Shown in pieces: positions 29,956 through 51,690 of a stretch of DNA of 64,000 nt. The position numbers were made by a program, and so were the translations under genes. Numbering within the stretch: position 1 is the first letter of the stretch; each line of letters opens with the position of its first letter. Source of the DNA: Candidatus Tanganyikabacteria bacterium (GTDB lineage: Bacteria > Cyanobacteriota > Sericytochromatia > S15B-MN24 > VGJW01); contig VGJW01000008.1 in assembly GCA_016867265.1 (NCBI GenBank), positions 66,552 to 130,551 on the forward strand. The letters are read 5' to 3'. The notes under the pieces are model-generated. The model made no database searches. It was not told where the DNA came from and worked only from the letters and a program-made list of their open reading frames with translations.

Positions 29956-31653
29956 ATGACCGCCATTCGCAGGCTGAACGCCCCCCAGGGCGCCGCCCCG
30001 CGCGTGGAGGCCGGCGGAGGCCCTTCGAAGCCGACCATGCGCTGGATCCCTTCCGTCAACCACAACGCACGGCCCGGCGGCAAGCGCGACATCGACACCA
30101 TTGTCCTGCACCACACGGGTGGCGGCTCGCTCAAGAGCAATGTGGCCTGGATGAACAACCCGGCCAGCAAGGTCTCCGCGCACTACACGGTGGGCAAGGA
30201 CGGCCGCATCGTCAACAGCGTCCAAGATCAGGACAGGGCCTGGCATGCGGGTACCAGCCGCTACAAGGGCCGTGACAACGTCAACGACTTCTCGGTGGGC
30301 ATCGAAATCGTCAACGAGGGTGACCACGTCGACCCCTATCCCCCCGAGCAGATGGAGGCCGTCGCGCACCTTGTCTCCTGGTTGATGGCGACCCATGGCA
30401 TCAGCTACGAGCGCATCACCGGGCACCGGGACGTTGCGTTGCCCAAGGGCCGCAAGGTCGACCCCTCGAACAATTTCGACTGGCAGGACCTGAAGGCTCG
30501 TGTGCAGCGGCACCTCGGCCAGGCCCCCACGCCACCCGGTGGCCAACCTTCCTCTCCGGTGGACCAGGCCCCGGCTCCCCGTCCGGCACCGGCCCCTGCA
30601 CGTCCAGACGGCACCGTCACCGTACACAAGGGCGACACGCTCTGGCATCTGGCCGAGGTCCACCTCGGCGACGCCACCCGCTGGCGCGAGATCTACGACG
30701 CGAACCGGGATCGCCTGAAGGACCCCAACCTCATCCTGCCCGGCCAGGTGCTGCGCCTGCCCGGCACGGCTGTCGCCCCTGCCCCCGGAGCGCAACCGGC
30801 CCAGCCCGCACCCGCGCAGCCTTCGCCGAATCAGCCTGCGCCGGTTCAGCCCGCCCCCGCGCAACCCGTCCCCGGGCAGCCAGCACCGGGCGGCACCATC
30901 CTGCCAGTCCACCCTCCGGCAGCACCGATGCCAGCCCGGCCCTATGTGCCGCCCGTCCAGGAGATCGCGCCGCCTCTGCCGCCCGTCCAGGCGCAGCCAG
31001 GTCCCCGACCTGCCCCAGCACCGGTACCCGCGCCTGCCCCCGTGCCGTCGCCGGCACCCGGTCGGCCCGCACCCCCACCCGGCGCGGGTGTTGACCGCCT
31101 GGGCTGGACCTTGCGGGGCGGAGCGCCCCTCGCGGGCGGCCTGATCGCCGGTGGCGCCGGATCAGCCTGGGGCGGTGCAGGCACGCGCCTCGGCTACGGC
31201 GCACGCATACCGGGTGGCTTGATGGGGTCAGCCCTCTTCGCGGGTCTTGGCGCCCTCGTGTCGAACCTCCTCGACTGGCGCGCGGGCAGGGTCAGCGGTC
31301 GCCAGGCCCTTCTGGGCACGGCTGTCGACACGGCCGCGTACACCGGCATCGCTGCCACCTCGACGTGGATCGGCGGCGCGCTGGGCAGCGTCCTTCCGGG
31401 GTTCGGCACCGCCATCGGCATGATCGCCGGCACGGCCGTGGGCGTCGGGCTCTCGTGGCTCTACGAAAAGTTCGTGCGGAGCCGCGGCATCGCGATGGCT
31501 GGCGCCGCGACCCAAGGCATCCGCAGCGACCTCGTGCCCCGGCCGGCCAGCGTGGGCGTGGTGCCTTCGGTGGACACCTTCACCCGCACGCCGACGCCAT
31601 CGTCGCCGCGCCCGTCCTTCGACAGCCGCAGCATGGTGCCCGAGGCTCGCTGA
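29956..31653 (+). CDS. N-acetylmuramoyl-L-alanine amidase (Amidase_2) + LysM + QPAP linker + glycine-zipper membrane domain
   Basis: IVLHHT, SAHY, RAWHAG, NDFSVGIEIV, GHRDVA..RK.DP; LysM VHKGDTLWHLA...IYDAN...NLILPGQVLRLP; C-terminal IGGALGSVLPGFGTAIG. Confidence 0.9.
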   Translation: MTAIRRLNAPQGAAPRVEAGGGPSKPTMRWIPSVNHNARPGGKRDIDTIVLHHTGGGSLKSNVAWMNNPASKVSAHYTVGKDGRIVNSVQDQDRAWHAGTSRYKGRDNVNDFSVGIEIVNEGDHVDPYPPEQMEAVAHLVSWLMATHGISYERITGHRDVALPKGRKVDPSNNFDWQDLKARVQRHLGQAPTPPGGQPSSPVDQAPAPRPAPAPARPDGTVTVHKGDTLWHLAEVHLGDATRWREIYDANRDRLKDPNLILPGQVLRLPGTAVAPAPGAQPAQPAPAQPSPNQPAPVQPAPAQPVPGQPAPGGTILPVHPPAAPMPARPYVPPVQEIAPPLPPVQAQPGPRPAPAPVPAPAPVPSPAPGRPAPPPGAGVDRLGWTLRGGAPLAGGLIAGGAGSAWGGAGTRLGYGARIPGGLMGSALFAGLGALVSNLLDWRAGRVSGRQALLGTAVDTAAYTGIAATSTWIGGALGSVLPGFGTAIGMIAGTAVGVGLSWLYEKFVRSRGIAMAGAATQGIRSDLVPRPASVGVVPSVDTFTRTPTPSSPRPSFDSRSMVPEAR

Positions 31654-31671
31654 CGCCCGCGGGCCACGCCC

Positions 31672-32751
31672 TCAGCCCAAGCGCTTCTCGGAGGCGGGGT
31701 CGAAGAGATGCACGCGAGAAGGCCGCACGGAGAATCGTGCGCGGCCGCCCGGGGCCGGCGTGACCTCGACAGGTACTCGCGCCAGCGCGGGTCCGCGTGC
31801 CGACGCCGCACGGAGGTGAACGTAACTCTCCGAACCCAGAGTCTCGACGACATCCACATCGGCCTCGAGCGTGCAGCCCTCGGCTGTCTCCGCCGGGTCG
31901 AGATGCTCGGGCCGGAGGCCGACCACCACCTTGCCGGGCCGGTGGTGAGGCTCGGCCGGCAGATCCAGGGCCAGACCCGACGCCGTGACGCGCGCCCGGC
32001 CACCCGACACGTCAAGGATAGCGTCGAACAGGTTCATCTGCGGCGAGCCGATGAAGGTGGCCACGAACAGGTTTGCGGGGCGGTCGTAGACCTCGAGGGG
32101 CGAGCCGTGCTGCTGCAGGTCGCCGCCGCGCATGACGGCAATACGGTCCCCCAGGGTCATGGCCTCTGTCTGGTCATGCGTGACGTAAACGAAGGTCGTC
32201 GCGAGGCGCTGGTGCAGTTTCTTGATCTCGGCCCGCATCGACACCCGCAGCTTGGCATCCAGGTTGGACAGGGGTTCGTCCATCAGGAAGACCTTGGGCT
32301 CGCGCACGATCGCGCGGCCGATGGCCACCCGCTGGCGCTGGCCGCCCGACAGGGCCTTGGGCTTGCGCTCGAGCAGGTGCTCGATCTCGAGTGAACGAGC
32401 CGCCTCGCGGACCTTGGTGTCGATTTCGGCGACAGGCAACTTGCGCAGCTTGAGCGCAAAGGCCATGTTTTCATACACCGTCATGTGCGGGTAGAGCGCG
32501 TAGTTCTGGAAGACCATTGCGATGTCCCGGGCCTTGGGATGCAGATCGTTGACGACCAACTCACCGATGCGCAGATGGCCGCCCGTAATCTCCTCGAGGC
32601 CGGCAATCATGCGAAGCGCGGTCGACTTGCCGCAGCCTGACGGCCCGACCAGCACGAGAAATTCCTTGTCCTCGACCGCCAGCGACAATTCACGTATGAC
32701 TACGTTGTCCCCGTAGCGCTTCTCGACCTTCTCGAAGATCACCTTGGCCAT
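31672..32751 (-). CDS. Sugar ABC transporter ATP-binding protein (MalK/MsmX/UgpC family), orphan
   Basis: GPSGCGKST, VFQNYALYPH, LSGGQRQR, LMDEPLSNLDAKLR, YVTHDQ, TOBE-like C-terminus. Confidence 0.95.
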   Translation of the reverse strand: MAKVIFEKVEKRYGDNVVIRELSLAVEDKEFLVLVGPSGCGKSTALRMIAGLEEITGGHLRIGELVVNDLHPKARDIAMVFQNYALYPHMTVYENMAFALKLRKLPVAEIDTKVREAARSLEIEHLLERKPKALSGGQRQRVAIGRAIVREPKVFLMDEPLSNLDAKLRVSMRAEIKKLHQRLATTFVYVTHDQTEAMTLGDRIAVMRGGDLQQHGSPLEVYDRPANLFVATFIGSPQMNLFDAILDVSGGRARVTASGLALDLPAEPHHRPGKVVVGLRPEHLDPAETAEGCTLEADVDVVETLGSESYVHLRAASARGPALARVPVEVTPAPGGRARFSVRPSRVHLFDPASEKRLG

Positions 32752-32825
32752 GAATCGGAACTCCTGACTGGGCGCATCCGTATGCCTGCCGTCAAGCCCA
32801 GATAAGGCATCCTAGCAGAAGGAAA

Positions 32826-32858
32826 GCCCTCCGGGCGCGGATGGCGCGCCCGGAGGGC
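32826..32858 (-). terminator. Intrinsic terminator of the gene at 32876-33562
   Basis: 14-bp perfect stem gccctccgggcgcg/cgcgcccggagggc, followed by TTTCCTTCT on the minus strand. Confidence 0.8.
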
Positions 32859-32875
32859 CTCGCAAACGTGGCCGA

Positions 32876-33562
32876 TCAGCTGGCGACGGGAATGACCGAC
32901 GACCGGGCCTGTGCGGCAGGGATGGCCTGTGCCTGAACCGGTGCCGATGCTGCCTGGGTGTGCGCCACAGGCGCCGATGGGGTCGCGGGGGCGGCGGACT
33001 GGTTGACGAGACCTTCCAGCTGGCCCTGGATGGCGCCGTTCAGGCTCGGACGCACCTTGTTCTCGTAGAACTTGCCGGCGAAGTAGCTGAAGAGTGCGCC
33101 GACACCGATGCCGACGATGGTGCCGATGCCCGGAACCAGGCTGCCGACGAATCCACCGACCATGGTGGCGGTGGCGCCGATGCCCGTGTAGGCCACCGTA
33201 TCACCGGCCGTGTTGGCGACAAACTTGGTGAACGAGCTGCGGCCGCTGACGAGGTCAATCGCGTTGGTGAAGACCGACATCAGGCCAGCGAGGGCGAAGT
33301 TGCTCTTGAGCAGGCCGGGCAGGGCGCGCAGGCTGGTGCTGATGGCGCTGCCGATGCCCGAGAAGAAGCCACCACCAAGACCGGTGCCACCCGCGACCAT
33401 CGCACGCGTCGCATCCGCTCCGGCACGGGACAGTTGGAAGACATCACGAGCGGCGCCCAGCGCCTTGGCCGACTGGATGACCGGGACAGCGACCCGCAGG
33501 CCACCGTGCATGTCGGCGCTGGCGAAGGGGCCGACAGGTGCGGCAGGTCCGTTGATGGCCAT
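32876..33562 (-). CDS. Glycine-zipper membrane-domain protein (paralog 1)
   Basis: MAINGPAAPVG...; TNAIDLVSG...TAGDTVAYTGIGATATMVGGFVGSLVPGIGTIVGIGVG...FYENKVRP. Confidence 0.82.
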   Translation of the reverse strand: MAINGPAAPVGPFASADMHGGLRVAVPVIQSAKALGAARDVFQLSRAGADATRAMVAGGTGLGGGFFSGIGSAISTSLRALPGLLKSNFALAGLMSVFTNAIDLVSGRSSFTKFVANTAGDTVAYTGIGATATMVGGFVGSLVPGIGTIVGIGVGALFSYFAGKFYENKVRPSLNGAIQGQLEGLVNQSAAPATPSAPVAHTQAASAPVQAQAIPAAQARSSVIPVAS

Positions 33563-33598
33563 CGGGGATACCTCGCTCGAGGGGGGTGGAGCCAAGGG

Positions 33599-33648
33599 GG
33601 TTACGACGGTGTTGTCCGGAGAACGACGCCCGATACGGTAAACCTGCG
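33599..33648 (-). promoter_or_regulatory. Conserved 50-bp upstream element, copy 1
   Basis: CGCAGGTTTACCG-N18-GGACAA-N5-TCGTAACC; same blocks and spacing at 51641-51690. Confidence 0.75.
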
Positions 33649-33718
33649 GTGAAGAAATCCCCAATACCGAGAGAAGGATCAACCACCCCGGCGGTGGTAC
33701 ATAGCCCAAGCAGGCCTC

Positions 33719-35581
33719 ATGATGCATTCCCGACGCCGCCCAGCCATCGAGCAGTTCTACGCCATCCGCAAGACGCGCGGCCTGGCGCTTGCGGCCGATG
33801 GCAAGACGGTAGCGTTCGTGACCAACCTGACAGGCACCCCGGAGGTCTGGACGGTGCCCGCCTCGGGCGGCTGGCCCCACCAGCTCACCTTTGGGGGCCA
33901 GGCCGTGCAGCAGGTCCTGTGGGCCGATGACGGCGAGAGCCTCATCGTCTCGATGGACCATGACGGTGATGAGGACTTCGAAATCTTCCGCGTCCCGCGC
34001 GCGGGCGGCATCCCTGTGCGCCTGCACCCGCCGGTGAAGGAACAGACCCACCTCGGCGGCATCTCGCCGGACGGCAAGCTGCTGGCCTACGCCAGCAACC
34101 ACGGCCATCCCGCCGCCTTTGACATCCTACTGCACGACCTGACGACCGGCGAAGAGCGAGTCCTGTGGCGTAGCAGCCTCGTCGACCTGCCCCTCGACTT
34201 CTCGCCCTGCGGCCGCTGGCTGCTGGCCTACCGCTTCGAGCAGAACGCCAACCAGGACCTGCTGCTCATCGACGTGGCCACCGGAGAGGGACGAATCCTG
34301 ACGGGACACGAGGGTCTTGTGCGCAACCACAGCGCAGTCTGGATCCCGGGCAGCTCCTCCTTCCTCTTCCTGACCGATCGGGACCGCGACTTCATGGGCG
34401 TCGGCCGCTACGACCTCGAGACCGGGACATGGGCGTGGGCCCACGCCCCGGAGCGAGATGTCATGGAATTGGCAATCGCCCCGGACGGAAACCGGTGGGC
34501 CTTCATCGAGAATCGGGATGGGCACCTCGTGCCTGTCCTGCACGACCCGGCCACCGGAACCGTGACCGAATTGCCGGACTACGCCGAGGGGGCCGCCAGC
34601 GAGCCCAAGTTCTCTCGGGACGGCCATACGCTGGCCTTCTGCCACGAGTCACCGGTCAGGCCACGCGACGTTCACATTCTGGACCTTGCGCACCACGACC
34701 GGCCGGGCATCCAGATTACCTTCTCGCAGATTGGTGGCCTTTCCGCAGCCGATCTGATCCGGCCCGAGATCCTGCGCTATGCGTCCTTCGACGGCCTCGA
34801 GATCACCGGCTGGCTCTTCACGCCTCGGGGGGAGGTCCCGCCCGGAGGCCATCCCGCCATCATCTGGCCCCACGGTGGCCCGGACTCGCAAGTCATCGCG
34901 AACTTCCAGCATTGGTTCCAGGTCTTTGCCGGCGCCGGCTACATGGTCCTCGCCCCCAACTTCCGCGGCAGCACGGGCTACGGCAAGGCATTCCAGGCGC
35001 TCAATCGACGCGACTGGGGTGGGGCAAGCTTTCGCGACATCGTCGCCGGCTCCGACCACCTGATCGGTCTGGGCAACGTCGACCCCACGCGCATCTCCGT
35101 GGTCGGCGGTTCCTTCGGGGGATTCATGGCCCTTACGGCGGCTACCCGGGAACCGGACCGCTGGGGAGCGATCGTCGACATCTTCGGCATCAGCAACCTG
35201 TTCACCTTCATCGAGACCACCCCGGCCTGGTGGAAACCCTACCTGCACCAGATGGTGGGCCACCCGGTCGCGGATCGCGCCCTGCTCGAGGAGCGCAGCC
35301 CGATCAACTTCATCGACCGCGTCAAGGCGCCCATGCTTGTCATCCAGGGCGCCAACGACGCACGCGTGGTCAAGGCCGAGTCGGACCAGGTCGTCGAACG
35401 CCTGCGCGGCCTGGGGGGCACGGTCGAGTATCTGGTCTTCGATGACGAGGGTCACGGCTTCAGCCACGTCTCCAACGAGATTCGGGCTGCAAGCGCCATC
35501 GTGGGCTTCCTCGACCGGCACATGCCGGCGAAGCATGCCCAAGTCCCGGCAGGAGCGCCGACGACGAACCGCCCGGCCTAG
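33719..35581 (+). CDS. S9 family peptidase (acylaminoacyl/prolyl oligopeptidase)
   Basis: N-terminal propeller; HGGP, NFRGSTGYG, GGSFGG, GANDARV, DEGHG. Confidence 0.93.
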   Translation: MMHSRRRPAIEQFYAIRKTRGLALAADGKTVAFVTNLTGTPEVWTVPASGGWPHQLTFGGQAVQQVLWADDGESLIVSMDHDGDEDFEIFRVPRAGGIPVRLHPPVKEQTHLGGISPDGKLLAYASNHGHPAAFDILLHDLTTGEERVLWRSSLVDLPLDFSPCGRWLLAYRFEQNANQDLLLIDVATGEGRILTGHEGLVRNHSAVWIPGSSSFLFLTDRDRDFMGVGRYDLETGTWAWAHAPERDVMELAIAPDGNRWAFIENRDGHLVPVLHDPATGTVTELPDYAEGAASEPKFSRDGHTLAFCHESPVRPRDVHILDLAHHDRPGIQITFSQIGGLSAADLIRPEILRYASFDGLEITGWLFTPRGEVPPGGHPAIIWPHGGPDSQVIANFQHWFQVFAGAGYMVLAPNFRGSTGYGKAFQALNRRDWGGASFRDIVAGSDHLIGLGNVDPTRISVVGGSFGGFMALTAATREPDRWGAIVDIFGISNLFTFIETTPAWWKPYLHQMVGHPVADRALLEERSPINFIDRVKAPMLVIQGANDARVVKAESDQVVERLRGLGGTVEYLVFDDEGHGFSHVSNEIRAASAIVGFLDRHMPAKHAQVPAGAPTTNRPA

Positions 35582-36117
35582 GGCAGGAACAGACCGGTCC
35601 GAGCGTCCAACCGGAACACGCCCTCGGGCGCGATGAGGGTCCAGATGGCCCGACGCTGCAAGTTCACCTGGTCGAGCGTGAACACGTCCGTCCGCCCGGG
35701 GGACATGCCCTGACGGACGGCCACGGCCACGGCCTGGTCGCTGTCGATCCGCGGCCGCTCGGTCAAGGCCTCGAGCGCGGCATCCCGGGACGTGACACGG
35801 ACCGACAGCCCCGTGTCGCCAAGCGACACCACGGCCATGTCGCGAGGGCGACGTGCCGACACGTAGGTGTAGGTCCAGTCCTGCACCATGTAGCCGGCCA
35901 TCATGGGGCCACCGGAGATGCGGGCAAGTCGCGCCTTGTCATCCCAGTCCAAGGCAGCCTGTTCGGCGGCGGCAAGCCCGGCCAGAGCGGTCGTCGCCCC
36001 CGCCGAACGGGCCGTCATCGCGATCGGCGTCGCGGACCGGGCAGCAGGCAGCACCGAACCGCAGCCGACGAGGCAGGATAAGGCGAGCGCCAGAAAGCGA
36101 AAAACCTGAATGGACAC
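35578..36117 (-). CDS. Hypothetical lipoprotein (PepSY-like C-terminus); start could be 36153
   Basis: FRFLALALSCLVG-C lipobox; IDSDQAVAVA...W...FRLDARTG. Confidence 0.65.
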   Translation of the reverse strand: MSIQVFRFLALALSCLVGCGSVLPAARSATPIAMTARSAGATTALAGLAAAEQAALDWDDKARLARISGGPMMAGYMVQDWTYTYVSARRPRDMAVVSLGDTGLSVRVTSRDAALEALTERPRIDSDQAVAVAVRQGMSPGRTDVFTLDQVNLQRRAIWTLIAPEGVFRLDARTGLFLP

Positions 36118-36243
36118 TCTGTGGAACCTTATAGAATAACGTAATCTTAACATGTTTTCGGAACAGGAAACAACTCCCGGCCTCCAGAGGAAGGCGGAGG
36201 GTACAATGAACCGTCCCGTTCCCCTGCTGGAGCCACGTCGCCC

Positions 36244-37785: not shown

Positions 37786-38525
37786 GGCAACGCCCGGGTC
37801 CTGCAAGGTGGGCCGCCCTGCCGGCAGCCCTGCTCGTTGGCTGTGCGGGCTCAGGCCCGGCGTTGCCTGCGGGTGCGCTGGGTGGCAAGCTGACCTACAT
37901 GGACCGGCCAGCCCCGGGCAAGCGGGTTTCGCTGCTGGCCCGCAAGGGTGACGCCTGGGTGGATGCGACGGGCGCGGACGGCAATCCCCTGACAGCCCAG
38001 GCCGACGGGGCCGGCATCTACCACTTTCCCGCGCTGCCCGGGAGCACCTACCGCGTGGTCTACCTGGCCCAGGAAGTGCCCGACGGCAATGGCGCACCCC
38101 TGCCTTCGCGGGAGGTCGCGGCCTGGAACAGCGCCGACGTGACGCATAGGACGGGCGGCACCTCGACGGTGCCCGACATCGAGGTGACCTACAACGGCCT
38201 TGTCTATCCGGACACGGGCCAGTCCTACCCGGTCGCCACCGAACTGCCCCTGCCATTCCACTGGGCGACCCACCGGCACGGCCGTCGCTACCGCCTGATC
38301 GTCTACGGCAACCGCGAGGGCCGTCCCCCGGCGTTCTACCAAGGGCCCTGGACCGACACCCCGTCGGCCGTCCTCGCACAGGAAGCCCAGCCGGACCTCT
38401 ACGCCTGGGAAGTCTTCATCGACGCAGGCCCGAACGGCGAAGGTCGATCCGGGCGTCGCAATCTGGACCTCAAGCCACCGGCCCAGGCAGACCCGCCGGC
38501 CGAGGAGCCAGCCCCGGAACCTTAG
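37782..38525 (+). CDS. Lipoprotein with Cna-B/carboxypeptidase-regulatory-like domain (probable CTG start)
   Basis: In-frame RWAALPAALLVG-C lipobox upstream of the track's TTG; ADGAGIYHFPALPGSTYRVVY. Confidence 0.65.
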   Translation: MRQRPGPARWAALPAALLVGCAGSGPALPAGALGGKLTYMDRPAPGKRVSLLARKGDAWVDATGADGNPLTAQADGAGIYHFPALPGSTYRVVYLAQEVPDGNGAPLPSREVAAWNSADVTHRTGGTSTVPDIEVTYNGLVYPDTGQSYPVATELPLPFHWATHRHGRRYRLIVYGNREGRPPAFYQGPWTDTPSAVLAQEAQPDLYAWEVFIDAGPNGEGRSGRRNLDLKPPAQADPPAEEPAPEP

Positions 38526-39232: not shown

Positions 39233-39241
39233 GATCGATGG

Positions 39242-41104
39242 TCAGCGGAACGAGCCCGTTGCCTGGAGATGCGAGCCCGTTCGCGTGAAGGAATCGTCCG
39301 AGGACAAGTAGTACTCGTTCCCCTCCTTGGGGCCGGTCCAGACGTTGGCACCATCGGCCGCATCGCCCCGGGGCCAGACCTCGAAGTAACCGTGGCGATC
39401 GATGAAGCCCGAGGTCGAAGAAACGATGCTGTTGGGTGAGTCGACGAGCCGCTCGCTGGGACTGGGTGTCTGGCCGGGCGGCGGGCTCCGCACGAGCGGA
39501 GGCTCGAGCAGCGGATTGACGAAAGGCGTGCGGCGCCAGCGCCACTTGGTGCGGTCCGCCGGGTTGGCGCGGTCATAGGACAACCAGATGAAGTTGGTAT
39601 TGGCCTCGACGTAGGCCATGGTGGTGTTGGTCTTGTCGGGGCGAGCGTCCTCCCACAGATAGAAGAACGTTTGCATGGGCGGCGCGCGGAAGGTATTCAG
39701 GGTGCCGTCGGGATAGTAGTACTCCTGCATGTCGCCGGGAGCGGGAGTGACCGGGACCGAGCCCGATTGGTAGGCGCCGTGGCTCGCCAGCATGTAGCCC
39801 CGGTTGCCGTCCGCGCGGAACACCTGGCCCGAGATCGTCGAGCCCGCGGCCAGACTCCGGCCGACATTGTCGAGCACGCCCGGATACCAATTGAAGTCAG
39901 GCGGGACCGTATTGGCACCCAGCTCCGTCTCGACCGACTCACGGGAGACATTGAGGGCCTTGAGCTCCATGCCCCCGCTCGAGATATAGATGTACTTGCC
40001 CGTAATCTCCGAAGGCTTGAAGGACTTCGTGTCGCCCTTGCCGTCGACACGGCCTTCGGTGACGGCAGCCAGGTAGAAACGCAGCAGGCGGTCCGAGCGG
40101 CGCTGGTCGACATCCAGGGTCGCAGCGTCCCCAGCCAGGTACTCCCGCAGGTCCAGCCGACAGTAGACCGCCACCCGGCTGCCGCTGGGCATCTGGTAGA
40201 TCTTCTTGTAGAACGGGGTGTCCAGCAGGTTCATGTCTGCCGGGTACTCCGCAACCCGATTGGGCCATTGCTCGCCCGTGGGCCTGTAGGTCGACTCGGG
40301 CGGGATGTACTTGGCCTCGATCGGGGTGGGCGAAGGCCCCGGCACGGTCGGCGCCGGCGTCGCGGGCAACCCCGTCTTCGCCGCCCCGGCCGTCACCGGA
40401 AGCAGTTGCTCGTACCAGAAGCTGTGCTTGACGGCCTTCTGGCCATCGCGCGGATCGCCTCCCATGCTGACGGTCGTCATGTAAGCTTCAGAGGGGAACA
40501 TCGCGCCGGTCTTCGCGTCCTTGCGCTGGGCGATGATGACGGGGAAGGGCTGCGCACCCACGCCTTCTCCCGTGTACCAATCGTCATCGATGCTGCTGTC
40601 CCGGGGCACCAGGCGCCAATACCGTGTCAGCGCGGGGAAGTCCTTGTTCGCGGGATTCCAAGTGCCCTTGTAGGTCTGCCAGTCGCAGAAAGCAGGCCAG
40701 TTCCGGGGATTGCCCAGCAAGGTCAGCTGCAGCAACGGCCGGTGGCGGAGCATCGCGGCCTCGGTCTGGGCCGGGAACTCGGGATTGATGTCGAGTTCGG
40801 AAAAAGTCCGGGTGGTATCAGCGGAATAATGGCCGGCTTGCACCGCGGGGCTGAAGGTACCGTTGACGGTCCAGAACGCCAGCAGCATCTTGTCCATGCC
40901 CGTCAGGATTTCGGTCTCGGCAAAGCGCAACGCGAGGTCGGCATCCTCGCGCGAGGCCAACTGGCGTGCGACGTTGCGGCCTACCTTCTGGTCGGTGAGC
41001 ACGCGCAGCACCACGGCCGTCACCAGCCCGGTCATGACCACCGAGATGACAATGGCGAAGACCAAAGCGAAACCCCGGGCCTGCGCCGTACGGGCACGCG
41101 TCAC
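39242..41104 (-). CDS. PilX-like large minor pilin/adhesin
   Basis: Class III signal RG|FALVFAIVISVVM lacking Glu5, as in PilX/GspK. Confidence 0.7.
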   Translation of the reverse strand: MTRARTAQARGFALVFAIVISVVMTGLVTAVVLRVLTDQKVGRNVARQLASREDADLALRFAETEILTGMDKMLLAFWTVNGTFSPAVQAGHYSADTTRTFSELDINPEFPAQTEAAMLRHRPLLQLTLLGNPRNWPAFCDWQTYKGTWNPANKDFPALTRYWRLVPRDSSIDDDWYTGEGVGAQPFPVIIAQRKDAKTGAMFPSEAYMTTVSMGGDPRDGQKAVKHSFWYEQLLPVTAGAAKTGLPATPAPTVPGPSPTPIEAKYIPPESTYRPTGEQWPNRVAEYPADMNLLDTPFYKKIYQMPSGSRVAVYCRLDLREYLAGDAATLDVDQRRSDRLLRFYLAAVTEGRVDGKGDTKSFKPSEITGKYIYISSGGMELKALNVSRESVETELGANTVPPDFNWYPGVLDNVGRSLAAGSTISGQVFRADGNRGYMLASHGAYQSGSVPVTPAPGDMQEYYYPDGTLNTFRAPPMQTFFYLWEDARPDKTNTTMAYVEANTNFIWLSYDRANPADRTKWRWRRTPFVNPLLEPPLVRSPPPGQTPSPSERLVDSPNSIVSSTSGFIDRHGYFEVWPRGDAADGANVWTGPKEGNEYYLSSDDSFTRTGSHLQATGSFR

Positions 41105-42075
41105 AAGGAACCTCCCTGGGGCAGGGGAACATTGCGGGCGAAGGCATACCCCTCGACCACCACGCCGTCGAGCGGCTCGCCGTCGCCATCCCTCTGGTTG
41201 CCCCCCGGAAGGGCGGGGCGGTTGGGATCACCGGCCATGAAGTTCCAGGCCACCTCATAGGGGCTGAGCACGTTCGAGTTGGCCGCAGGATGGTCCAGCA
41301 GCAGGCGGAAGAGCGTCTTCACGCCCTCCGGGGCGTAGACGGGCACATCCGCCGCAGACTCGCCCGGCACCACCGTCGCAAGCACCAGGGCCTGGGTCGG
41401 CTGGCACGTCAGGGATGCTGCCGCGTTCGCAGAGCCCGTCCAGTGATCGCCATTCAGCGTGGTGGCAGCCGCAACGAAGCGCACATTATGCTGCGGCAGG
41501 GGGCCGCCGGCCGTCCGGTAGTTCACGTTCATCCGGAACTGCTCGCCCGTCGCGGTGTTGATGGTGCCCGAGCAGGCCATCGACAGCCGGACCATCCGGT
41601 TCCACAGGCCCGTCCCGTCGCGCTCCGCCGCCGTCGGGTTCCGGGGATTGACGGGCCCGTTCGTCCGCATGTAGGCCACGAAGATCGGTGTTTCCATGGT
41701 GCCTTGCATCAGGACCAGCACATCCGTGGGCAACCCGTTGGAGAGCTTACCCGACCGCAACTCGTCGCCCCACGCGGCGGGAATCGTGGTCTGCCCGCCC
41801 GATGGCAACCAGTTGGCCAACGACTGGCCGCCGACCTTGACGCCGGCATCCACGGTCACACGGGTCGAATGATAGATGTACCGGGCCACGCGAATGTCCT
41901 CGCCCAGGCGAATGGTTGCGAAGCGGGACTGCCCCAGTGCCGAGGACTTGGCATTGACCTTGGCCGCATAAGCACCCCAGCGACGCGTCAACTCGAACGA
42001 GGTCGCCACGACGATGGAAAAAACGACGATGCCCGAAACCAGTTCGACGAGCGTGAAGCCCCTGCGCCTGCTCAT
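41101..42075 (-). CDS. PilW-like minor pilin
   Basis: MSRRRG|FTLVELV; RLGEDIRVA. Confidence 0.8.
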   Translation of the reverse strand: MSRRRGFTLVELVSGIVVFSIVVATSFELTRRWGAYAAKVNAKSSALGQSRFATIRLGEDIRVARYIYHSTRVTVDAGVKVGGQSLANWLPSGGQTTIPAAWGDELRSGKLSNGLPTDVLVLMQGTMETPIFVAYMRTNGPVNPRNPTAAERDGTGLWNRMVRLSMACSGTINTATGEQFRMNVNYRTAGGPLPQHNVRFVAAATTLNGDHWTGSANAAASLTCQPTQALVLATVVPGESAADVPVYAPEGVKTLFRLLLDHPAANSNVLSPYEVAWNFMAGDPNRPALPGGNQRDGDGEPLDGVVVEGYAFARNVPLPQGGSL

Positions 42076-43058
42076 TGGCCCAGCATCCGTCCCGAAATGA
42101 CGACCGAGGCGCTGGCCAGCTCCTTCTCGACCTTGCCGCCCGAGACGAAGCCCCAGTCCCCGGCATAGCTCTTGGCCGGATAGGTTCGCGCGACCAGAAT
42201 GCGCGTCAGGCATTCGGTGAACTCGCTGCGGAAGCCACCGGTAGCAGGACGTCCGGCCCGACTGTCATAGACGAACAGGCGCCCCGTATCCAGGAGGCCG
42301 GACGTCCGCGGGGAGCCGATGGCGGAATCGGCCAGCAACGCATAGGCCTCGGCAGAGATACCGGTAGACGGCAGGACGCCCGAGACGTCGGCACCGACAT
42401 GGATGGCGTTGGCTGACTCGGATATCCCGGACAATCTGTTCGCTCCGCTGTCGACCCGGCGCATGGCCGCCTCGGACAGGCCGAAACATTGCAGTCGGAC
42501 CACGTAGCGCACGCCGGTGGGGTCCGCGAGCGACGACGCGAAATCTGCCTGGTCATCCACGAGGGCAGAAAGTTCGCGGCCGGAGTTGTTGAACTTGAAG
42601 ACCGTACCGAAAGGAGTCTCGTTGAACCACGAACCGTAGAGATTGTCGACATTCAAGACGAGTGCGCCTCCGACCACTTTCGTGGGGATGGCGGCCAGCG
42701 CCCGGTTCGCCGGGGCCTCGATAGGGCGCCCATTGTCCGGGAACAGGTCGAAGAAGTACTGGGTGACCTGAGCGCCCTGCCGCTGCAGGCGATAGGCGCG
42801 GCCATAGCGCTGACCCTCGGTCATGAAAGCCAGGGAAGTCTCGGTGGCCAAATCCGCGAGGATGGTATCCAGAACACGATCGGCCAGGCTCTGCGCGTAG
42901 GGGCCTTCCATGGTCTTGGTGCCCGTCTTGGAGAAGCTCATCAGCAGCTGGGCCATGGAGCTCAGGATGATGCCCATGACGGCCGCGGCCACGAGGTTCT
43001 CGACGAGCGTGAAGCCCCGTGCCCGCCACCGCGGGGTAGAGCAGCCCGAAGATCGCAT
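42072..43058 (-). CDS. PilV-like minor pilin
   Basis: RG|FTLVENLVAAAVMGIIL. Confidence 0.8.
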   Translation of the reverse strand: MRSSGCSTPRWRARGFTLVENLVAAAVMGIILSSMAQLLMSFSKTGTKTMEGPYAQSLADRVLDTILADLATETSLAFMTEGQRYGRAYRLQRQGAQVTQYFFDLFPDNGRPIEAPANRALAAIPTKVVGGALVLNVDNLYGSWFNETPFGTVFKFNNSGRELSALVDDQADFASSLADPTGVRYVVRLQCFGLSEAAMRRVDSGANRLSGISESANAIHVGADVSGVLPSTGISAEAYALLADSAIGSPRTSGLLDTGRLFVYDSRAGRPATGGFRSEFTECLTRILVARTYPAKSYAGDWGFVSGGKVEKELASASVVISGRMLGQ

Positions 43059-43780: not shown

Positions 43781-44287
43781 TCAGTCCAAGTAGAAGCTGG
43801 TGACGACCTTGTGCTTTTCCTGGGCGTATTTCACGGAGTCCATGAGGGTCGTGCTGCTGTGGTAGAGGAAGCAGATGAGCTGCTGGCAGGAGTCGATGAT
43901 CTCCTGGTTGCACATCTGCGAGGCCTGAGCCAGCGTCAGCAACCTGCGCTCCGCGTGCTCGCGGACTGCGGGCAGCGCCTGCAGAAGCTCCTGGCTCTCG
44001 GAGGACTGCTGGGAGAGCGTCTGGGGCAGAACGACCTGGAGGTTGCCCGGATTGGCACGCTGCACGCCCTTGATGACGGCCGAGTTCGTGCCGGCAGCGC
44101 CACTCGTGATGATGGTGTTGCCCGTGAGGGCGAGGGCGTAGGCCAACATCTCGATGAGCTGCTGGTGAGTCAGCGAGATGTGTCGGGTGCCGAGGATGGC
44201 GATCTTCTTGGCTCCAGACGTCTGAATCGTCTGAAGCTCTGCCATGAAGGCGTCCACGGTGGCGGGAACCTGGATCGAAGTATCCAT
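43781..44287 (-). CDS. Short SLOG/DprA-like protein of the conserved cyanobacterial type
   Basis: KIAILGTRH, ITSGAAGTNSAVI, VVLPQTL, ASQMCNQEII, VTSFYLD. Confidence 0.8.
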   Translation of the reverse strand: MDTSIQVPATVDAFMAELQTIQTSGAKKIAILGTRHISLTHQQLIEMLAYALALTGNTIITSGAAGTNSAVIKGVQRANPGNLQVVLPQTLSQQSSESQELLQALPAVREHAERRLLTLAQASQMCNQEIIDSCQQLICFLYHSSTTLMDSVKYAQEKHKVVTSFYLD

Positions 44288-44351
44288 GCGCGGTCGGGAC
44301 CTGCTGACGTTGGCGTGCCGTTCTGGTGACGCATGCTAGCATGGGGGTCCC

Positions 44352-46661: not shown

Positions 46662-47200
46662 AACCCGAGGCGGGACCAGAAGCCCTTGCGGGCCGCGAGG
46701 TTCTCTCCCTTGACCCGGGCACCCTGCATCGTTTCGGCCACGGCGTCGATGATGTCCTCGTCGACCTTGGCCCTGTGAAGCAGCGTGAAGACGCGGTCGA
46801 TGCGCTCGTTGGTGCCGGACAGGCGCTCGGCCAGCGTGCGAACGACCTGCAGCAGGATCGCGGGGTTCTTGGCCAGCAGGGACTCGAAGTTCCGATAGAC
46901 GGTGAACGAACACGGCGTCAGCGCCCGGACCGTCGCAGACCGGGGCTTGCGCAGCAGGGCCCCGACCTCGCCGAGGACCGCACCGGGCCCCTTGACCACG
47001 GCCACGCGCTCGTCGCCGACCAGGACCTCGACCTCACCTTCGTCCAGCACGATGACGTCGAAGCTCGATTCGCCGTCCTTGAAGACCGGCTTGCCGGGGC
47101 CGCAGGTCCAATGGCGGGGGGGCGTGATGGCATCGGGGGCGGTGCCCTTGCCCGGGGCGGGGCGATCCCAACCCGGCGATTTCTTGGCGTCCTCGGTCAT
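46658..47200 (-). CDS. Stand-alone cyclic-nucleotide-binding domain protein
   Basis: VFKDGE, LDEGEVEV, GAVLGEVGALL..PRSATVRA; no HTH. Confidence 0.82.
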   Translation of the reverse strand: MTEDAKKSPGWDRPAPGKGTAPDAITPPRHWTCGPGKPVFKDGESSFDVIVLDEGEVEVLVGDERVAVVKGPGAVLGEVGALLRKPRSATVRALTPCSFTVYRNFESLLAKNPAILLQVVRTLAERLSGTNERIDRVFTLLHRAKVDEDIIDAVAETMQGARVKGENLAARKGFWSRLGF

Positions 47201-47403
47201 CTCAACCTCCGTGGGGGTTTCCTCCCGCGCACGGCCACAAGAACCGGCCTTGACCCCCTGCTTGAATCTTTCGTACCATACCCTTTCAGTCACCCTTTGT
47301 CGTCTCTTTTCCAAACCTTGGTTCACCGAGGCAACGGTCGACGTCGCGGCGACGCCCCGGAAACGGCAAGCGCGCCCTCCCAGCAAGGAAGGTTCCCGAA
47401 CCC

Positions 47404-49530
47404 ATGGCTCCAGACCAGATCTTTCACCTGATCACGTGGTTCTCCATCGCGGCATCGCTGGCCGCCCTCGTGGTCGCAGGCGGCCTGACCGGCTGGGTCC
47501 TCAAGCAGCCCGCAGGCAATGCCCGGATGCAGGAAATCGCCGGAGCCATCCAGGAAGGTGCCGCCGCCTACCTCAATCGCCAGTACACGACCATCGCCGG
47601 CGTGTCGGTCGTGCTGGCCGCGCTGATCTTCTTCTTCTTCCGCACCCCGGAAGACACGATGCACGGCCTCGTGCCGGCACTCGGCTTCGTCGTCGGCGCC
47701 GTCTTCTCGGGCTTCGCCGGCTACGCGGGCATGAACATCTCGGTCCGTGCCAACGTCCGCACGACGGCAGCCGCCGAACGCGGCCTCCCGCAGGCCCTCG
47801 ACGTGGCCTTCCGCGGGGGCGCCGTCACGGGCTTCGCCATCGTCGGCCTGGGCCTGCTGGGCGTCGCAGCCTTCTTCATGTGGCTGTTCCCGACGGACCT
47901 GGCCGCCGAGGCCGCGAGCCACAACCGCGAGTTGTTCAACCTTGCCCTCGAGGGCATGGGTTTCGGCGCCAGCTTGATCTCGCTGTTCGCCCGCGTGGGC
48001 GGCGGCATCTTCACCAAGGCTGCCGACGTCGGCGGAGACCTCGTCGGCAAGGTCGAGGCAGGCATCCCCGAGGACGACCCCCGCAACCCGGCCACCATCG
48101 CCGACAACGTCGGTGACAACGTCGGCGACTGTGCCGGCATGGGCGCGGACCTCTTCGAGACCTACGTCGTCACGATGATCGCCGGCATGCTGCTCGGCCA
48201 GTTCGCCTTCCCCGGCAGCGCTCAGGGCGTGCTCCTGCCCCTGGCGCTCGGTGCCGCCGCCATCGTGGCGTCGATCATCGGTTCGTTCTTCGTCCGCCTG
48301 AGCGCGAGCGAGAACATCATGGGCGCCCTCTACAAGGGCCTCTTCGCCACCACGGCCGTCGCCGTCGGCCTGTTCTACTACCTGGTCGAAAAGGTCATGG
48401 GCGAGAACGCGATGCCGTTCTTCTGGGCCGGTTCGATCGGCCTCGCGGTCATGGTGCTGATCACGCTGATCACCGAGTACTACACCTCGACGAACTTCCG
48501 GCCTGTCAAGGTCATCGCCGAGGCGTCCCAGACCGGTCCCGCGACGAACATCATCTCGGGCCTCGCCGTCGGCATGGAGTCCACGGCCGTGCCTATCGTG
48601 ATCATCATCGCCGGTATCGCCGGTTCGTTCTTCATGACCCAGGGCCTCGCGACCGAGGGTGTCGAGACCGTCATCATGGGTGCCTACGGCATCGCCATTG
48701 CCGCTGTCGGCATGCTGTCGACCGCAGGCATGGTCGTTGCCATCGACTCGTACGGTCCCATCACGGACAACGCCGGTGGCATCGCCGAGATGAGCGAGCT
48801 GCCCGGCACCGTCCGTGAAATCACGGACAAGCTGGACGCCGTGGGCAACACCACCAAGGCCGTGACCAAGGGCTACGCCATCGGTTCCGCCGGTCTCGGC
48901 GCCCTAGCCCTGTTCATCACCTTCACCAAGAAGGTCGATGGCTTCGAGAACCTGAAGGGCATCGTCTACACGCTGCAGGACCCGATGATCATCATCGGTC
49001 TGTTCCTGGGCGGCATGCTGCCCTTCCTGGCTTCCTCGATGTTCATGAATGCCGTGGGCAAGGCGGCGCAGGCCGTCATCGTCGAAGTCCGTCGCCAGTT
49101 CCGCGAGATGCCCGGCATCATGGACCGGACGCAGAAGCCCGACTACGGCAAGGCCGTCGACTTGGTCACCCGTGCAGCCATCCGCGAGATGCTGCTGCCC
49201 GGCGCCATGGCCGTCCTGGCACCCGTCGTCGCTGCATTCGTCGGCATCAAGCTGCTGGCCGGCATGCTGTCCGGAGCCATCCTGACGGGCATGCTGATGG
49301 CGCTGATGATGGCCACCGGTGGCGGTGCGTGGGACAACGCCAAGAAGTACATCGAGCTCGGCAGCTTCGGCGGCAAGGGTTCCGATGCGCACAAGGCAGC
49401 CGTCGTCGGCGACACGGTCGGTGATCCCTTCAAGGACACCGCGGGTCCCGCGCTCAACCCGATGATCAAGATCCTGAACATCGTGGCGCTGCTCGTGGTG
49501 ACGGCGTTCGCCACCCAGCTGCACCCGTAG
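47404..49530 (+). CDS. hppA: Membrane-bound H+-translocating pyrophosphatase, K+-independent type
   Basis: [46 protein letters not shown] (Lys variant), [11 protein letters not shown]. Confidence 0.95.
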
Positions 49531-49545
49531 CCCGGGTCACAACCG

Positions 49546-49584
49546 ACAGCCCCGGGGCGCCGACATCGGCCCCCGGGGCTGTTT
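49546..49584 (+). terminator. Intrinsic terminator after hppA
   Basis: acagccccgggg...ccccggggctgt stem ending in a short TTT. Confidence 0.7.
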
Positions 49585-49698
49585 GCGTGCAGGCAGGGTA
49601 CGACATGGGCACGCCACCTCGTGGCTGATCGAGTGCAAGGTTTCCTGCTCAGGAAGCGGCAAGCTGCACCCCGTCTCCGACGATAGACACAACGGACC

Positions 49699-50823
49699 AT
49701 GGACACGACCATCCGCCACCGCACGCCCCCTGCCCAGGCAGGGAAGACTGCGGTTGCGGGGCTTGCGGCGCCGCCAAGGGCCATCAAGCGCGACGAACGT
49801 CCGGGTACGGTGGATGCGCGGGTGCTGTCCGCACCGGCCAGCCGCGCCGAGGAACAGGCCTTGATGGCCGCCGGCTGGCTGCCATCCGAATATGCCCAGG
49901 CCCGCGGCCGCAGCAGGGCCGCTGCCGAAGCCCTCGCGATGCGTCCGGGCGCGCCGGCTCGGTCCATGAGCTACACGGACCGTGAAGTCATGCTGAAGGG
50001 TGCCCGAACGCTCGCCGGTACGCCGGAACTTCAGGAGCTGGCCCGGACCGTCCGCAAGGGAGACATCGTCCTGACGGCCGAGTTCCTGCCCGGCGACCCG
50101 GTCACGGGCATGACCGGAGGTCCCTACAACCACGCCATGATTTGCGTGAAGGAAGGCCCCCAGCCCGAGTTCATCGAGGCCATCGGCGTGACGGGGGGCA
50201 AGGGCGACCCGACGGGGAATCGGGTACGGCAGTCACGCATCCAGGACTATGCCATTCGCCACATCGCCTTCCGCATCCTGCGTCCTGCCGACGCGCTCCC
50301 CCCGGCCCAGAGAGAGGCCGCCGTCTCGCGGGCTGTCGACTACGCCCGACAGCAGTTGGGGCGGCCCTACGACTATGCCTTCACGAATCTCGACCACGGC
50401 AAAGGCGGGGAGAAGGCGTTCTATTGCAGCGAGTTGGTCTACATGGCGTGGGCATCCAAGGCCGGAGCCGGCGTACGGATGCCCGTGGCGCGTGACGCCT
50501 CGCTCAACGGCGGCATGCGCGCCGTCCACGCCGTGCTCGACGCGGCAGGTCCCGTGCGTCCCAACGAAACCCTGCGTCCCATCGTTCGTCAGGTCATGGA
50601 CGGAAGACATCCCCTCGCCATCATCCAGAGCGCCCTTGGCAGCTTCCTGCCCAAGCTGCGTGGCCCAGACCTGAAGGCACTGGGCGAGGATCTGCTGGCC
50701 AAGGCCACCGGTCGGACGCCCGACCTGCGATTCGTTTCGCCCACCGACCTCGCCTGGGGCGGCCTGCCCGTGATGGACTTCAACACCAAGGGCCGGGCCA
50801 TGGACCCGACCACACGGCGCTGA
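49699..50823 (+). CDS. Permuted papain-like NlpC/P60 (YiiX/YebB family) hydrolase, no signal peptide
   Basis: GDIVL, YNHAMI, QLGRPYDY, FYCSELV, VSPTDL. Confidence 0.85.
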   Translation: MDTTIRHRTPPAQAGKTAVAGLAAPPRAIKRDERPGTVDARVLSAPASRAEEQALMAAGWLPSEYAQARGRSRAAAEALAMRPGAPARSMSYTDREVMLKGARTLAGTPELQELARTVRKGDIVLTAEFLPGDPVTGMTGGPYNHAMICVKEGPQPEFIEAIGVTGGKGDPTGNRVRQSRIQDYAIRHIAFRILRPADALPPAQREAAVSRAVDYARQQLGRPYDYAFTNLDHGKGGEKAFYCSELVYMAWASKAGAGVRMPVARDASLNGGMRAVHAVLDAAGPVRPNETLRPIVRQVMDGRHPLAIIQSALGSFLPKLRGPDLKALGEDLLAKATGRTPDLRFVSPTDLAWGGLPVMDFNTKGRAMDPTTRR

Positions 50824-50900
50824 TTCAGGCTCGCCGTCAGGCGGGCGGGCCTGTGTGTCCGAGACACGGCCAGCCGGCCTTGCCGGCCGAGACCAGGCCT

Positions 50901-51614
50901 TCAGCCCTGGAACATCTTGGCTTCGACGGTCTTGCGGAAATCCGGCTTGAGCAGCTTGTCGTACATCTCGCCGGCAAGGATGCCGACGCCAGCTCCGACC
51001 AGCATGCCGATGAGCGTCCCCGCGACCGGCACGATGGAACCCACGAGCCCACCAATGGCAGTGCCCAGCGAACCTGCGACGGTATAGCCGATACCATCCG
51101 CGACCGTTCCGGCCAGCATCTGGTTCTGGGTGATCTGGCCTTTGCGCATGTCGATGAAGTTCTGCACGAAGGCCAACGGGAAGCTGATGAGCGCCCCGAG
51201 CTTGAGACTGCGGAACAGGTTCATCGGGTTCAGGGCCTGGCCGAGCGCCGCCCCGAAGGTCGGCTTGAGGCCCTTGATACCATCGACCGATGCCTTGAGC
51301 ATCAAGCCGGCATCTGCAGAGCGCGCCACAGCGGAGGCCGCGGCACGATTCATCATCTCGGGCACCATGCGCACCGGCGCCACGGCACCGATGACGTTCA
51401 GCGTATGCGCCCCGGGCCGGGCCATCGGGTCGACCGGAGAGGCCGCAGGCGCGGGAGAAGCCATGGGCATCGACGGGCCAGGCACGAAACGGTCGGGCTG
51501 CTGAACCGGCGCAGGCTGTGGCATCTGGCCGGGCTGGGGTACGGGGGCCAGCACCGGAGGCGTGGGCACGACGCTGGCAGCGGACCAAGGAGAGACGGCA
51601 GGGACCATCGTCAT
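50901..51614 (-). CDS. Glycine-zipper membrane-domain protein (paralog 2)
   Basis: QNFIDMRKG...TVADGIGYTVAGSLGTAIGGLVGSIVPVAGTLIGMLVG...MYDKLLKP. Confidence 0.82.
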   Translation of the reverse strand: MTMVPAVSPWSAASVVPTPPVLAPVPQPGQMPQPAPVQQPDRFVPGPSMPMASPAPAASPVDPMARPGAHTLNVIGAVAPVRMVPEMMNRAAASAVARSADAGLMLKASVDGIKGLKPTFGAALGQALNPMNLFRSLKLGALISFPLAFVQNFIDMRKGQITQNQMLAGTVADGIGYTVAGSLGTAIGGLVGSIVPVAGTLIGMLVGAGVGILAGEMYDKLLKPDFRKTVEAKMFQG

Positions 51615-51640
51615 CGGGAGGACCTCGGGCAGCTGGACAC

Positions 51641-51690
51641 GGTAACGAGGGGATTGTCCGAGAAGATGACTGTCGCTCGGTAAACCTGCG
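51641..51690 (-). promoter_or_regulatory. Conserved 50-bp upstream element, copy 2
   Basis: CGCAGGTTTACCG-N18-GGACAA-N5-TCGTTACC. Confidence 0.75.

Follow-up and report, generated by a model that had tools for sequence, protein, structure and literature searches.

Why would a peptidoglycan amidase share a glycine-rich domain with two further proteins that match no catalytic domain and whose genes lie apart from its own? The question is raised by a stretch of 64,000 nucleotides (nt) from a Candidatus Tanganyikabacteria bacterium (contig VGJW01000008.1, positions 66,552 to 130,551; called the window below), in which three genes, here named A, B and C, each encode one copy of a glycine-zipper domain that we call Gz. 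An earlier note on this DNA had taken the three products for a co-regulated, oligomerising, membrane-inserting complex with a wall-cutting subunit, used in antagonism, predation or envelope remodelling. Judged from their sequences, the three genes are paralogues that share a single unnamed domain, and they are likely to be co-regulated. The reading that we favour, at what we consider even chances, is that they belong to a motility-coupled wall-remodelling gene set that operates under a sigma factor of the FliA family and includes membrane-tethered hydrolases.

The Gz domain and the three genes that carry it

The three genes and their domains are laid out as follows, with lengths in amino acids (aa):
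29956-31653, + strand: gene A, 565 aa, composed of Amidase_2, LysM, a Pro/Ala-rich linker of about 150 aa, Gz and a short tail
30082-30468, + strand: Amidase_2 domain of A, aa 43-171 (PF01510, E 8e-36, 123.7 bits)
30619-30762, + strand: LysM domain of A, aa 222-269 (PF01476, E 2.9e-8, 33.9 bits)
31207-31485, + strand: Gz domain of A, aa about 418-510
32876-33562, - strand: gene B, 228 aa, with a conserved N-terminus (MAI...GMRxAVPVI), Gz and a Pro/Ala/Gln-rich tail
33047-33322, - strand: Gz domain of B, aa about 81-172
50901-51614, - strand: gene C, 237 aa, with a Pro-rich N-terminus, a conserved helical middle and a C-terminal Gz
50943-51227, - strand: Gz domain of C, aa about 130-224

Gz is a shared domain of about 95-115 residues with a glycine zipper and three helices (H0, H1 and H2) that are rich in Gly, Ala and Thr. 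BLASTP with compositional adjustment aligned A with B at E 7e-17 (38% over 115 aa), A with C at E 5e-16 (39% over 76 aa) and B with C at E 3e-16 (31% over 134 aa). Because the alignments survive this adjustment, the likeness reflects homology, and we rejected a Gly-rich compositional artefact, an outcome that the earlier note had named as fatal to its proposal; the three-way alignment in addition holds 22 invariant columns. A search of all 41 contigs of the assembly (2,851,896 bases, 98% complete) with B returned exactly three copies, those of A, B and C.

No model in Pfam or NCBIfam matched Gz at its cut-off. The best Pfam match, Gly-zipper_Omp (PF13488), reached 19.8 bits (E 7.4e-4) on C, under its gathering cut-off of 25 bits, gave no match on A or B, and scored 16.7-20.1 bits, again below the cut-off throughout, on relatives. 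AlphaFold2, run on an alignment of 35 Gz sequences, placed helices at positions 6-45, 51-82 and 86-118 with a mean predicted local distance difference test score (pLDDT) of 65.6, and a Foldseek search of the Protein Data Bank (PDB) with this model returned nothing at E <=0.001, only generic helical hairpins. The full-length model of C was unusable (mean pLDDT 43.4), and a complex prediction for the Gz domains of B and C, entered as alignments and run without controls, scored 0.00 and gives no verdict. Across the family, Lys and Arg gather in two places, the H0-H1 loop (2.5 per Gz sequence) and the stretch that follows H2 (2.7), and are missing from the H1-H2 turn (0), a distribution that under the positive-inside rule would put the tip of the H1-H2 hairpin outside; the part N-terminal to Gz would then lie outside too, if H0 spans the membrane.

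Protein A clearly belongs to the Amidase_2 family, since its score lies well above the Pfam cut-off of 26 bits and the match covers profile positions 2-130 of 131; its LysM domain likewise exceeds the cut-off of 20.9 bits. Against the AmpD equivalog NF008758, A scored 115.6 bits, below the cut-off of 143, and we therefore rejected its identification as a cytoplasmic AmpD; the fused LysM domain argues that A may act on the intact wall. None of the three N-termini has the hydrophobic, positively charged character of a Sec signal, as judged from hydropathy and charge: the highest nine-residue Kyte-Doolittle mean within the first 50 residues is 0.07 in A, 1.8 in B and 1.41 in C, and the first eight residues hold two Lys or Arg in A and none in B and C. 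Several readings of the earlier note are borne out at this point, namely that a real domain is common to the three genes, with the motifs and translations that it quoted present in the sequence, that one copy is fused to a wall amidase, that Sec signals are missing from all three, and that the domain matches no named system.

A promoter-like motif and the genes behind it

The three genes also share a two-part motif, TTTACC-N18/19-C[CG]GAYAA, which precedes each of them:
29891-29922, + strand: motif of A, TTTACC-N19-CCGACAA, ending 33 nt before the ATG
33612-33642, - strand: motif of B, TTTACC-N18-CGGACAA, ending 49 nt before the ATG
51654-51684, - strand: motif of C, TTTACC-N18-CGGACAA, ending 39 nt before the ATG

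The sequence AGGTTTACCG occurs exactly twice in the window, upstream of B and of C. Exact matches to the motif number six in the whole genome (5.7 Mb, both strands), compared with none for the reversed pattern and with about 0.5 expected from base composition by our own estimate. A, B and C account for three of the six; the remaining three lie before the genes of a lipoprotein of 244 aa, a Pro/Ala-rich protein of 80 aa (at a distance of 212 nt) and a Peptidase_C39_2 protein of 288 aa without a signal. Because a shared promoter-like element of this kind is rare in the genome, co-regulation of A, B and C is likely, which agrees with the upstream element and the common control that the earlier note had proposed. 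The motif also bears on the start of A: an alternative, longer open reading frame (ORF) begins at 29902, inside the motif, so that the start at 29956 is to be preferred. CGAGG and a CCCG directly followed by the ATG, both of which the note had pointed out, are found at all three starts. A scan of the genome that allowed one mismatch gave 18 matches where two shuffles gave 11 and 14, and was dropped as noise; the gene set described here consists of exact pattern matches, with no weight matrix behind it.

In five relatives (G012, G010, G014, G027 and G022), the pattern TTTACC-N16-19-CCGAYAA matched 25 times and its control never. All 25 matches lie 2-59 nt upstream of an ORF on the same strand, and their second halves read CCGATAA or CCGACAA, as the pattern itself imposes. 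Seven of the genes behind them encode Gz proteins; the others include genes for one protein with Amidase_2 only, two with LysM, one with PG_binding_1, one combining PG_binding_1 with Glucosaminidase, five lipoproteins, a Flp-like pilin (recognised by eye) and several unassigned Pro/Ala-rich proteins. The wall enzymes and wall binders of this set lack Sec signals, and as transcription can start only where the motif allows, a wrong choice of start codon does not explain the missing signal peptides. Among the regulon genes that could be assigned, membrane helices are predicted for the Gz proteins alone. Several of the Pro/Ala-rich proteins share an amphipathic stretch of the type SF(L/F)S..W....FF (in this genome, G000, at C5:48580-48822 on the - strand, and at loci L078, L092 and L098; the protein of L092 also has two PG_binding_1 domains) and may constitute a second unnamed family of the regulon.

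Which sigma factor could read this motif? The accessible part of one report gives the sigma-28 consensus as a -10 element GCCGATAA at -15 to -8 and a -35 element TCTAAAG (PMC12784957). The second half of our motif, CCGACAA or CGGACAA in the window, matches this sigma-28/FliA -10 element, at least in the form given there, and a private promoter of this class probably drives all three genes. The genome offers more than one potential reader. It encodes two FlhA genes and 7 Flagellin_N matches, and the FliA_WhiG model matches eight stretches at seven loci, only one of which exceeds its NCBIfam cut-off; this FliA, at C15:57957, has an FlhA gene beside it. Another FliA-like sigma (C5:75940-76662) lies inside a second, full flagellar cluster, which comprises FliK-like, FlgF, FlgG, FlgA, FlgI, FlgJ, the sigma, FlgB, FlgC, FliF and FlhA. 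A group-3 sigma candidate is also present at C10:39751, and a further gene of this kind is encoded in the window itself and is, from its sequence, a candidate reader of the Gz motif:
63137-63904, + strand: group-3-like sigma factor, 255 aa (FliA/WhiG model, 119 bits, under the cut-off of 189.6)

The two flagellar gene sets, at C5:70060-82052 (L072) and C15:40000-60000 (L071), both look complete. The FlgJ of the second set consists of the rod-binding part only and hence has no built-in wall hydrolase.

Range, gene order and flagellar linkage

A profile of the three window Gz domains was searched against the genomes of the order, the class and a phylum sample (201 genomes). Within the order, Gz occurs in all 26 other genomes (7/7, 8/8, 10/10 and 1/1 in families f1 to f4, f1 being that of the window), usually in three copies per genome and over a range of one to six. 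The remaining families of the class gave weak matches in 8 of 20 genomes (E 8e-6 or worse), and the phylum sample contained one further consistent group, family f9, with matches in 25 of its 74 small, low-GC genomes (E 1e-4 to 1e-10); going by ESM Atlas labels, f9 probably corresponds to Melainabacteria. Two other matches in the sample proved to be generic Gly-rich stretches. The nearest ESM Atlas clusters are unnamed (hypothetical protein), carry the labels Blackallbacteria or Melainabacteria and score 0.85-0.90, which we treat as a lead only. In public collections, the genes have orthologue sets of their own (3 matches for A, 12 for B and 11 for C), and near-identical proteins bear the NCBI label Candidatus Sericytochromatia bacterium. 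Gz counts as a core trait of a single order of flagellated Sericytochromatia.

Gene order is similarly stable. The succession of A, a MalK-like ABC ATPase and B is kept in all five relatives examined, the ATPase being 69-73% identical to its counterparts; an S9 peptidase lies beside B in G027 and G022, the two relatives whose examined stretch extended that far, and C adjoins an H+-pyrophosphatase in G027 and G012. By sequence and position, each of the three genes represents an old orthologous group whose synteny is conserved. Three orthologues of A (P0027-P0029) have the same architecture, and those in G014, G012 and G010 likewise combine Amidase_2 with LysM. At the A locus of G022, from a related genus (L037:8481-10169, - strand; P0031), a CHAP/DUF1287 head that resembles cysteine peptidases replaces Amidase_2, with LysM, linker and Gz retained, and G010 has an additional LysM-Gz paralogue; on the evidence of this head swap and this paralogue, Gz pairs repeatedly with wall-cutting or wall-binding heads.

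Two groups of Gz proteins elsewhere are built differently. Family f2 has proteins of about 450 aa (loci L048, L050 and L052; proteins P0045, P0057, P0061 and P0077), in which a long helical region rich in Ala, Lys and Thr is flanked by two conserved ends, GGDSQNTMPIA... at the N-terminus and one of the SYEQA type at the C-terminus; the four scanned (L048, L050, L052 and P0045) matched no Pfam family. The distant low-GC homologues (L054-L057 and L060; 400-600 aa), probably of Melainabacteria, begin with a conserved domain, followed by a middle that resembles a coiled coil, then Gz and a tail rich in Asn-Pro-Phe-Met. The motif was not seen upstream of these five, which share another, AT-rich upstream element, GCAATTT ... 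TATATA.

A link to the flagellar motor emerged from tblastn, in which two genes from the first flagellar region had homologues beside Gz genes in other genomes; Pfam identifies the two as MotA and MotB. We compared the positions of MotB_plug and Gz in all 27 genomes of the order, counting Gz genes that follow motB on the same strand at no more than 2.5 kb. In 12 of them, motA-motB is directly followed by a Gz gene (7/8 in f2, 5/10 in f3, 0/8 in f1 and 0/1 in f4), which was confirmed at the level of the locus in 11 genomes; in G010 and G011 the distance from motB to Gz is 5-6.5 kb. In G012, the order reads pyrophosphatase, C-type Gz, motB, motA, with the motif between motB and the Gz gene, and C falls together with the motB-adjacent f3 genes in a quickly built tree of the short domain, with support of 84-90 in the Shimodaira-Hasegawa-like approximate likelihood ratio test (SH-aLRT). 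FlhA was found in 122 of the 201 genomes of the phylum sample, including every family of Sericytochromatia and all 74 genomes of f9; among the 24 other families in this tally, f27 alone has any. All Sericytochromatia searched possess FlhA save two incomplete genomes, both 87% complete.

The surroundings of A, B and C within the window are unremarkable in composition (G+C 0.64-0.73 and flat, with no compositional island at any of the three), and a family scan of the surrounding genes identified housekeeping functions. A prophage or mobile island was rejected on these two grounds, and none of the genes adjoining A, B or C is an evident immunity-gene candidate. The ATPase next to B is the following:
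31672-32751, - strand: MalK-like ABC ATPase (Pfam ABC_tran, OB_MalK and TOBE_2), 124 nt downstream of B

No terminator-like site separates it from B, which lies on the same strand, and judging from this arrangement the two may be co-transcribed; no permease gene stands alongside. Other neighbours comprise a Peptidase_C92 gene (permuted papain-like amidase; 49699-50823, + strand) convergent to C, for which a BLAST comparison with the relatives examined gave no equivalent in the vicinity of C; two adjoining genes with a prokaryotic N-terminal methylation motif, pilin- or pseudopilin-like (41101-43058, - strand), beside a 620-aa ORF without a Pfam family (39242-41104, - strand); and, directly upstream of C, two divergent OmpR-type winged-helix (Trans_reg_C) genes (51698-52534, - strand, and 52607-53341, + strand), a pair also present beside C in G027.

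Mechanism, rival explanations and known systems

How might such a gene set work? In the reading that we favour, a FliA-class sigma factor would read TTTACC-N18/19-C[CG]GAYAA ahead of genes for peptidoglycan enzymes and binders, lipoproteins and a pilin. Gz would insert into the cytoplasmic membrane with the H1-H2 tip outside and both ends of the hairpin inside. In A, it would tether LysM and Amidase_2 to the wall through the Pro/Ala linker of about 150 residues, and the tethered enzyme would trim peptidoglycan locally. B and C would be non-catalytic Gz proteins of the same set, proteins of the C type acting beside the MotAB stator. Since A, B and C have no Sec signal, their N-terminal parts would have to be carried across the membrane by Gz itself or by the flagellar export gate. 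In all this, we infer the sigma dependence, the topology, the tethering and any contact among A, B and C.

Several observations weigh against this reading. The first half of the motif, TTTACC(G), is unlike the sigma-28 -35 element TCTAAAG/TAAA, and it stands 17-18 nt before the -10 octamer instead of the canonical 14-15 nt, about 2-3 nt further upstream, as far as the consensus in the accessible source goes. Two of the organism's own flagellin genes carry canonical-looking promoters, (T)AAAGGTT/TCAAGGTC-N11-(T)CCGACAT/GTCGATG, unlike the Gz motif, and together with the differing -35 half this makes a sigma factor other than the main FliA likely. Among the sequencing runs listed as containing the locus, 20 are of DNA and none of RNA, and promoter and sigma factor alike are deduced from sequence. 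The Gz helices are marginally hydrophobic (19-residue Kyte-Doolittle means of 1.4-2.1; summed Hessa values of +2.4 to +7.3), which makes their stable residence in the membrane uncertain. To our knowledge, moreover, there is no routine precedent for an N-terminal part of about 400 residues crossing a membrane without a signal peptide. The window's own family, the genome of the window included, accounts for the eight genomes of f1 in which Gz never lies next to motAB; the motB-adjacent genes of f2 form a clade of their own apart from C, with weakly supported placement; and although Gz is nested within flagellated lineages, its co-occurrence with flagella is confounded by phylogeny.

The distant relatives of Gz bring in a different set of comparisons. 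A profile of 35 Gz sequences, searched against 1.84 billion cluster representatives, gave 2273 matches at E <=1e-3, 116 at <=1e-10 and 14 at <=1e-30. From the 150 matches listed, we scanned 76 with Pfam, having dropped 14 proteins with multiple Gly-repeat stretches and all those shorter than 300 aa. Most of the 76 matched no Pfam family; the others include LysM (4), RES (4), YwqJ-deaminase (3), WXG100 (2), LXG (1), eCIS_core (1), Amidase_2 (1) and CHAP (1). Gz thus ends proteins that resemble polymorphic toxins (RES, deaminase, LXG/WXG100 and eCIS_core), and these relatives match most of the profile, beyond the zipper alone. We found no literature that pairs DUF4157 with a glycine zipper. Among the PHROGs, C matches phrog_16692 (unknown function, 1107 positions) at E 3e-12, and tape-measure families (E 0.003-0.1) and tail-lysin families match weakly; the best PDB sequence match of the profile is the tape measure 9ki1_g (E 0.013), confined to the zipper, and tblastn of C against 50,697 phage records gave no match. 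The likeness to tape-measure and toxin segments that the earlier note had proposed therefore draws some support from phrog_16692, 9ki1_g and the toxin-domain relatives, but identification of Gz as a tape-measure membrane segment is not supported, given the weak PHROG matches, the lack of a tblastn match in phage records and the housekeeping neighbours. A, B and C themselves have no trafficking domain, toxin head or evident adjacent immunity gene as polymorphic toxins would.

Could the Gz proteins serve export in the manner of a holin? B, C and the Gz of A may oligomerise into a lesion or channel that gives the signal-less wall enzymes of the regulon access to the periplasm, comparable to the action of holins on endolysins and to holin/endolysin (type 10) secretion, an explanation that we regard as unlikely. 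The absence of Sec signals from motif-linked wall enzymes and binders whose starts are fixed by the promoter position speaks in its favour, as does the restriction of predicted membrane helices to the Gz proteins among the assignable genes; A itself is a hydrolase fused to Gz, and three helices followed by a Lys/Arg-rich stretch after H2 recall class I holins. The only lysis-category PHROG matched, the endolysin phrog_10341, adds weak support (E 0.0084-0.051 for the window proteins, C giving 0.0084, and 1.9e-6 for a distant relative). Holins are typically proteins of about 60-150 aa that have one to four membrane helices and a charged C-terminus and are encoded beside a signal-less endolysin. 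However, no holin family was matched in Pfam, NCBIfam or the labelled PHROGs, the proteins (228-565 aa) are 3-5 times as long as a typical holin and conserved in their N-terminal parts, and a Gz gene behind motAB would go unexplained. That gene position would be an accident if Gz were a plain C-terminal anchor of unrelated envelope proteins in a general envelope or surface regulon not specially tied to flagella, which seems to us less probable again. Lipoproteins and a Flp pilin in the regulon, the absence of motAB adjacency from the window's family, the difference between the motif's -35 half and the flagellin promoters and the seven loci with group-3 sigma-like genes would all suit a plain anchor, but 12 genomes from two families retain Gz behind motB, the conserved polar residues within the helices (N, D, T, D, Y and T) argue against a passive role, and it is the whole domain, beyond the zipper, that recurs in toxin-like proteins.

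The least probable of the rivals, in our estimate, is that A, B and C are effectors secreted independently of Sec, perhaps through the flagellar type III gate, alongside which they would be expressed, the hydrolase cutting the wall and Gz permeabilising or crossing the membrane of a target cell. The toxin-like domains among the 76 distant relatives, the missing Sec signals and the marginal hydrophobicity of the helices, which would suit passage through a narrow secretion channel, are compatible with it. So is the type VI secretion system (T6SS) effector Tde1, whose glycine zippers drive membrane permeabilisation and entry into the target cell and which resembles tape measure proteins, according to the accessible part of the report (PMC10240207). 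Yet universal orthologues, single-copy for each type and in stable housekeeping synteny, are unlike the patchy, fast-changing polymorphic toxins; B and C lack a catalytic domain, no candidate immunity gene lies beside A, B or C, and in a diderm target, enzymes set free on the outside would need help to gain access to the wall. Universality, housekeeping synteny, the lack of an evident immunity gene and the flagellar ties make the antagonism and predation that the earlier note had considered less likely, and envelope remodelling, the third of its options, fits best with the sigma-28-type -10 element, the adjacency to motAB in 12 of 27 genomes and the universal, syntenic range.

A bolder reading, which we put forward as a doubtful one, is that Gz may be the conduit, or the self-inserting vehicle, of an undescribed Sec-independent route for signal-less peptidoglycan hydrolases that a paralogous FliA-type sigma switches on with the flagellar motor, a chromosomal housekeeping descendant of the module with which phage tape measures and polymorphic toxins cross the membranes of target cells. 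The analysis would put a name to a domain that has so far had no family and that links core envelope proteins of these uncultured, non-photosynthetic relatives of cyanobacteria to membrane-crossing modules of toxins and phages. It makes a promoter and regulon of a group-3 sigma in Sericytochromatia testable for the first time, raises the question of how signal-less wall enzymes reach the wall, and proposes a candidate stator-side component of the flagellar motor in this group, on which the searched literature on Sericytochromatia with peptidoglycan or flagella showed nothing at the level of titles and abstracts. Glycine-zipper membrane modules, sigma-28-type control of autolysins and stator-side accessory proteins are already known singly; the three-helix Gz family, the signal-less fusion of Amidase_2 or CHAP with LysM, the private promoter and the motAB position were not found in the libraries and literature searched.

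Among known systems, the autolysin regulon of Bacillus subtilis sigma-D, a sigma-28 homologue, includes the amidase LytC, the glucosaminidase LytD and LytF, which combines LysM with NlpC/P60. The Gz set is similar in that amidase, glucosaminidase, cysteine-peptidase and LysM proteins stand behind a sigma-28-type -10 element in a flagellated organism. It differs in that its enzymes lack Sec signals and some of them carry Gz, in its -35 half TTTACCG, in an amidase of the Amidase_2 and not the Amidase_3 family, and in a host that is presumably diderm. With PF13488, DUF1269 (PF06897), DUF456 (PF04306) and MamC, Gz has in common a Gly/Ala-rich helical hairpin, matched weakly (E 7e-4 to 0.03); these matches fall below the cut-offs and span the zipper hairpin of 35-50 residues, not the 95-115 residues of Gz. 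As far as the available part of the Tde1 report describes them, the zipper modules of Tde1 and tape measures resemble Gz in their consecutive small-xxx-small repeats on paired helices (PMC10240207), and both are associated with wall hydrolases (tape measure or tail lysins) or toxin heads; unlike those modules, Gz is C-terminal, includes a third helix bearing the conserved motifs N..D and T..D...YT, and resides in core chromosomal genes instead of mobile toxin or phage loci. Finally, the stator-associated proteins MotC, MotE, MotK and FliL, in the portion of the source at hand (PMC13023049), are periplasmic TPR or chaperone types or single-pass proteins, unlike the three Gly-rich helices of Gz without a Sec signal; by gene position, however, Gz is comparable to them, as a small envelope gene directly downstream of motB in two families.

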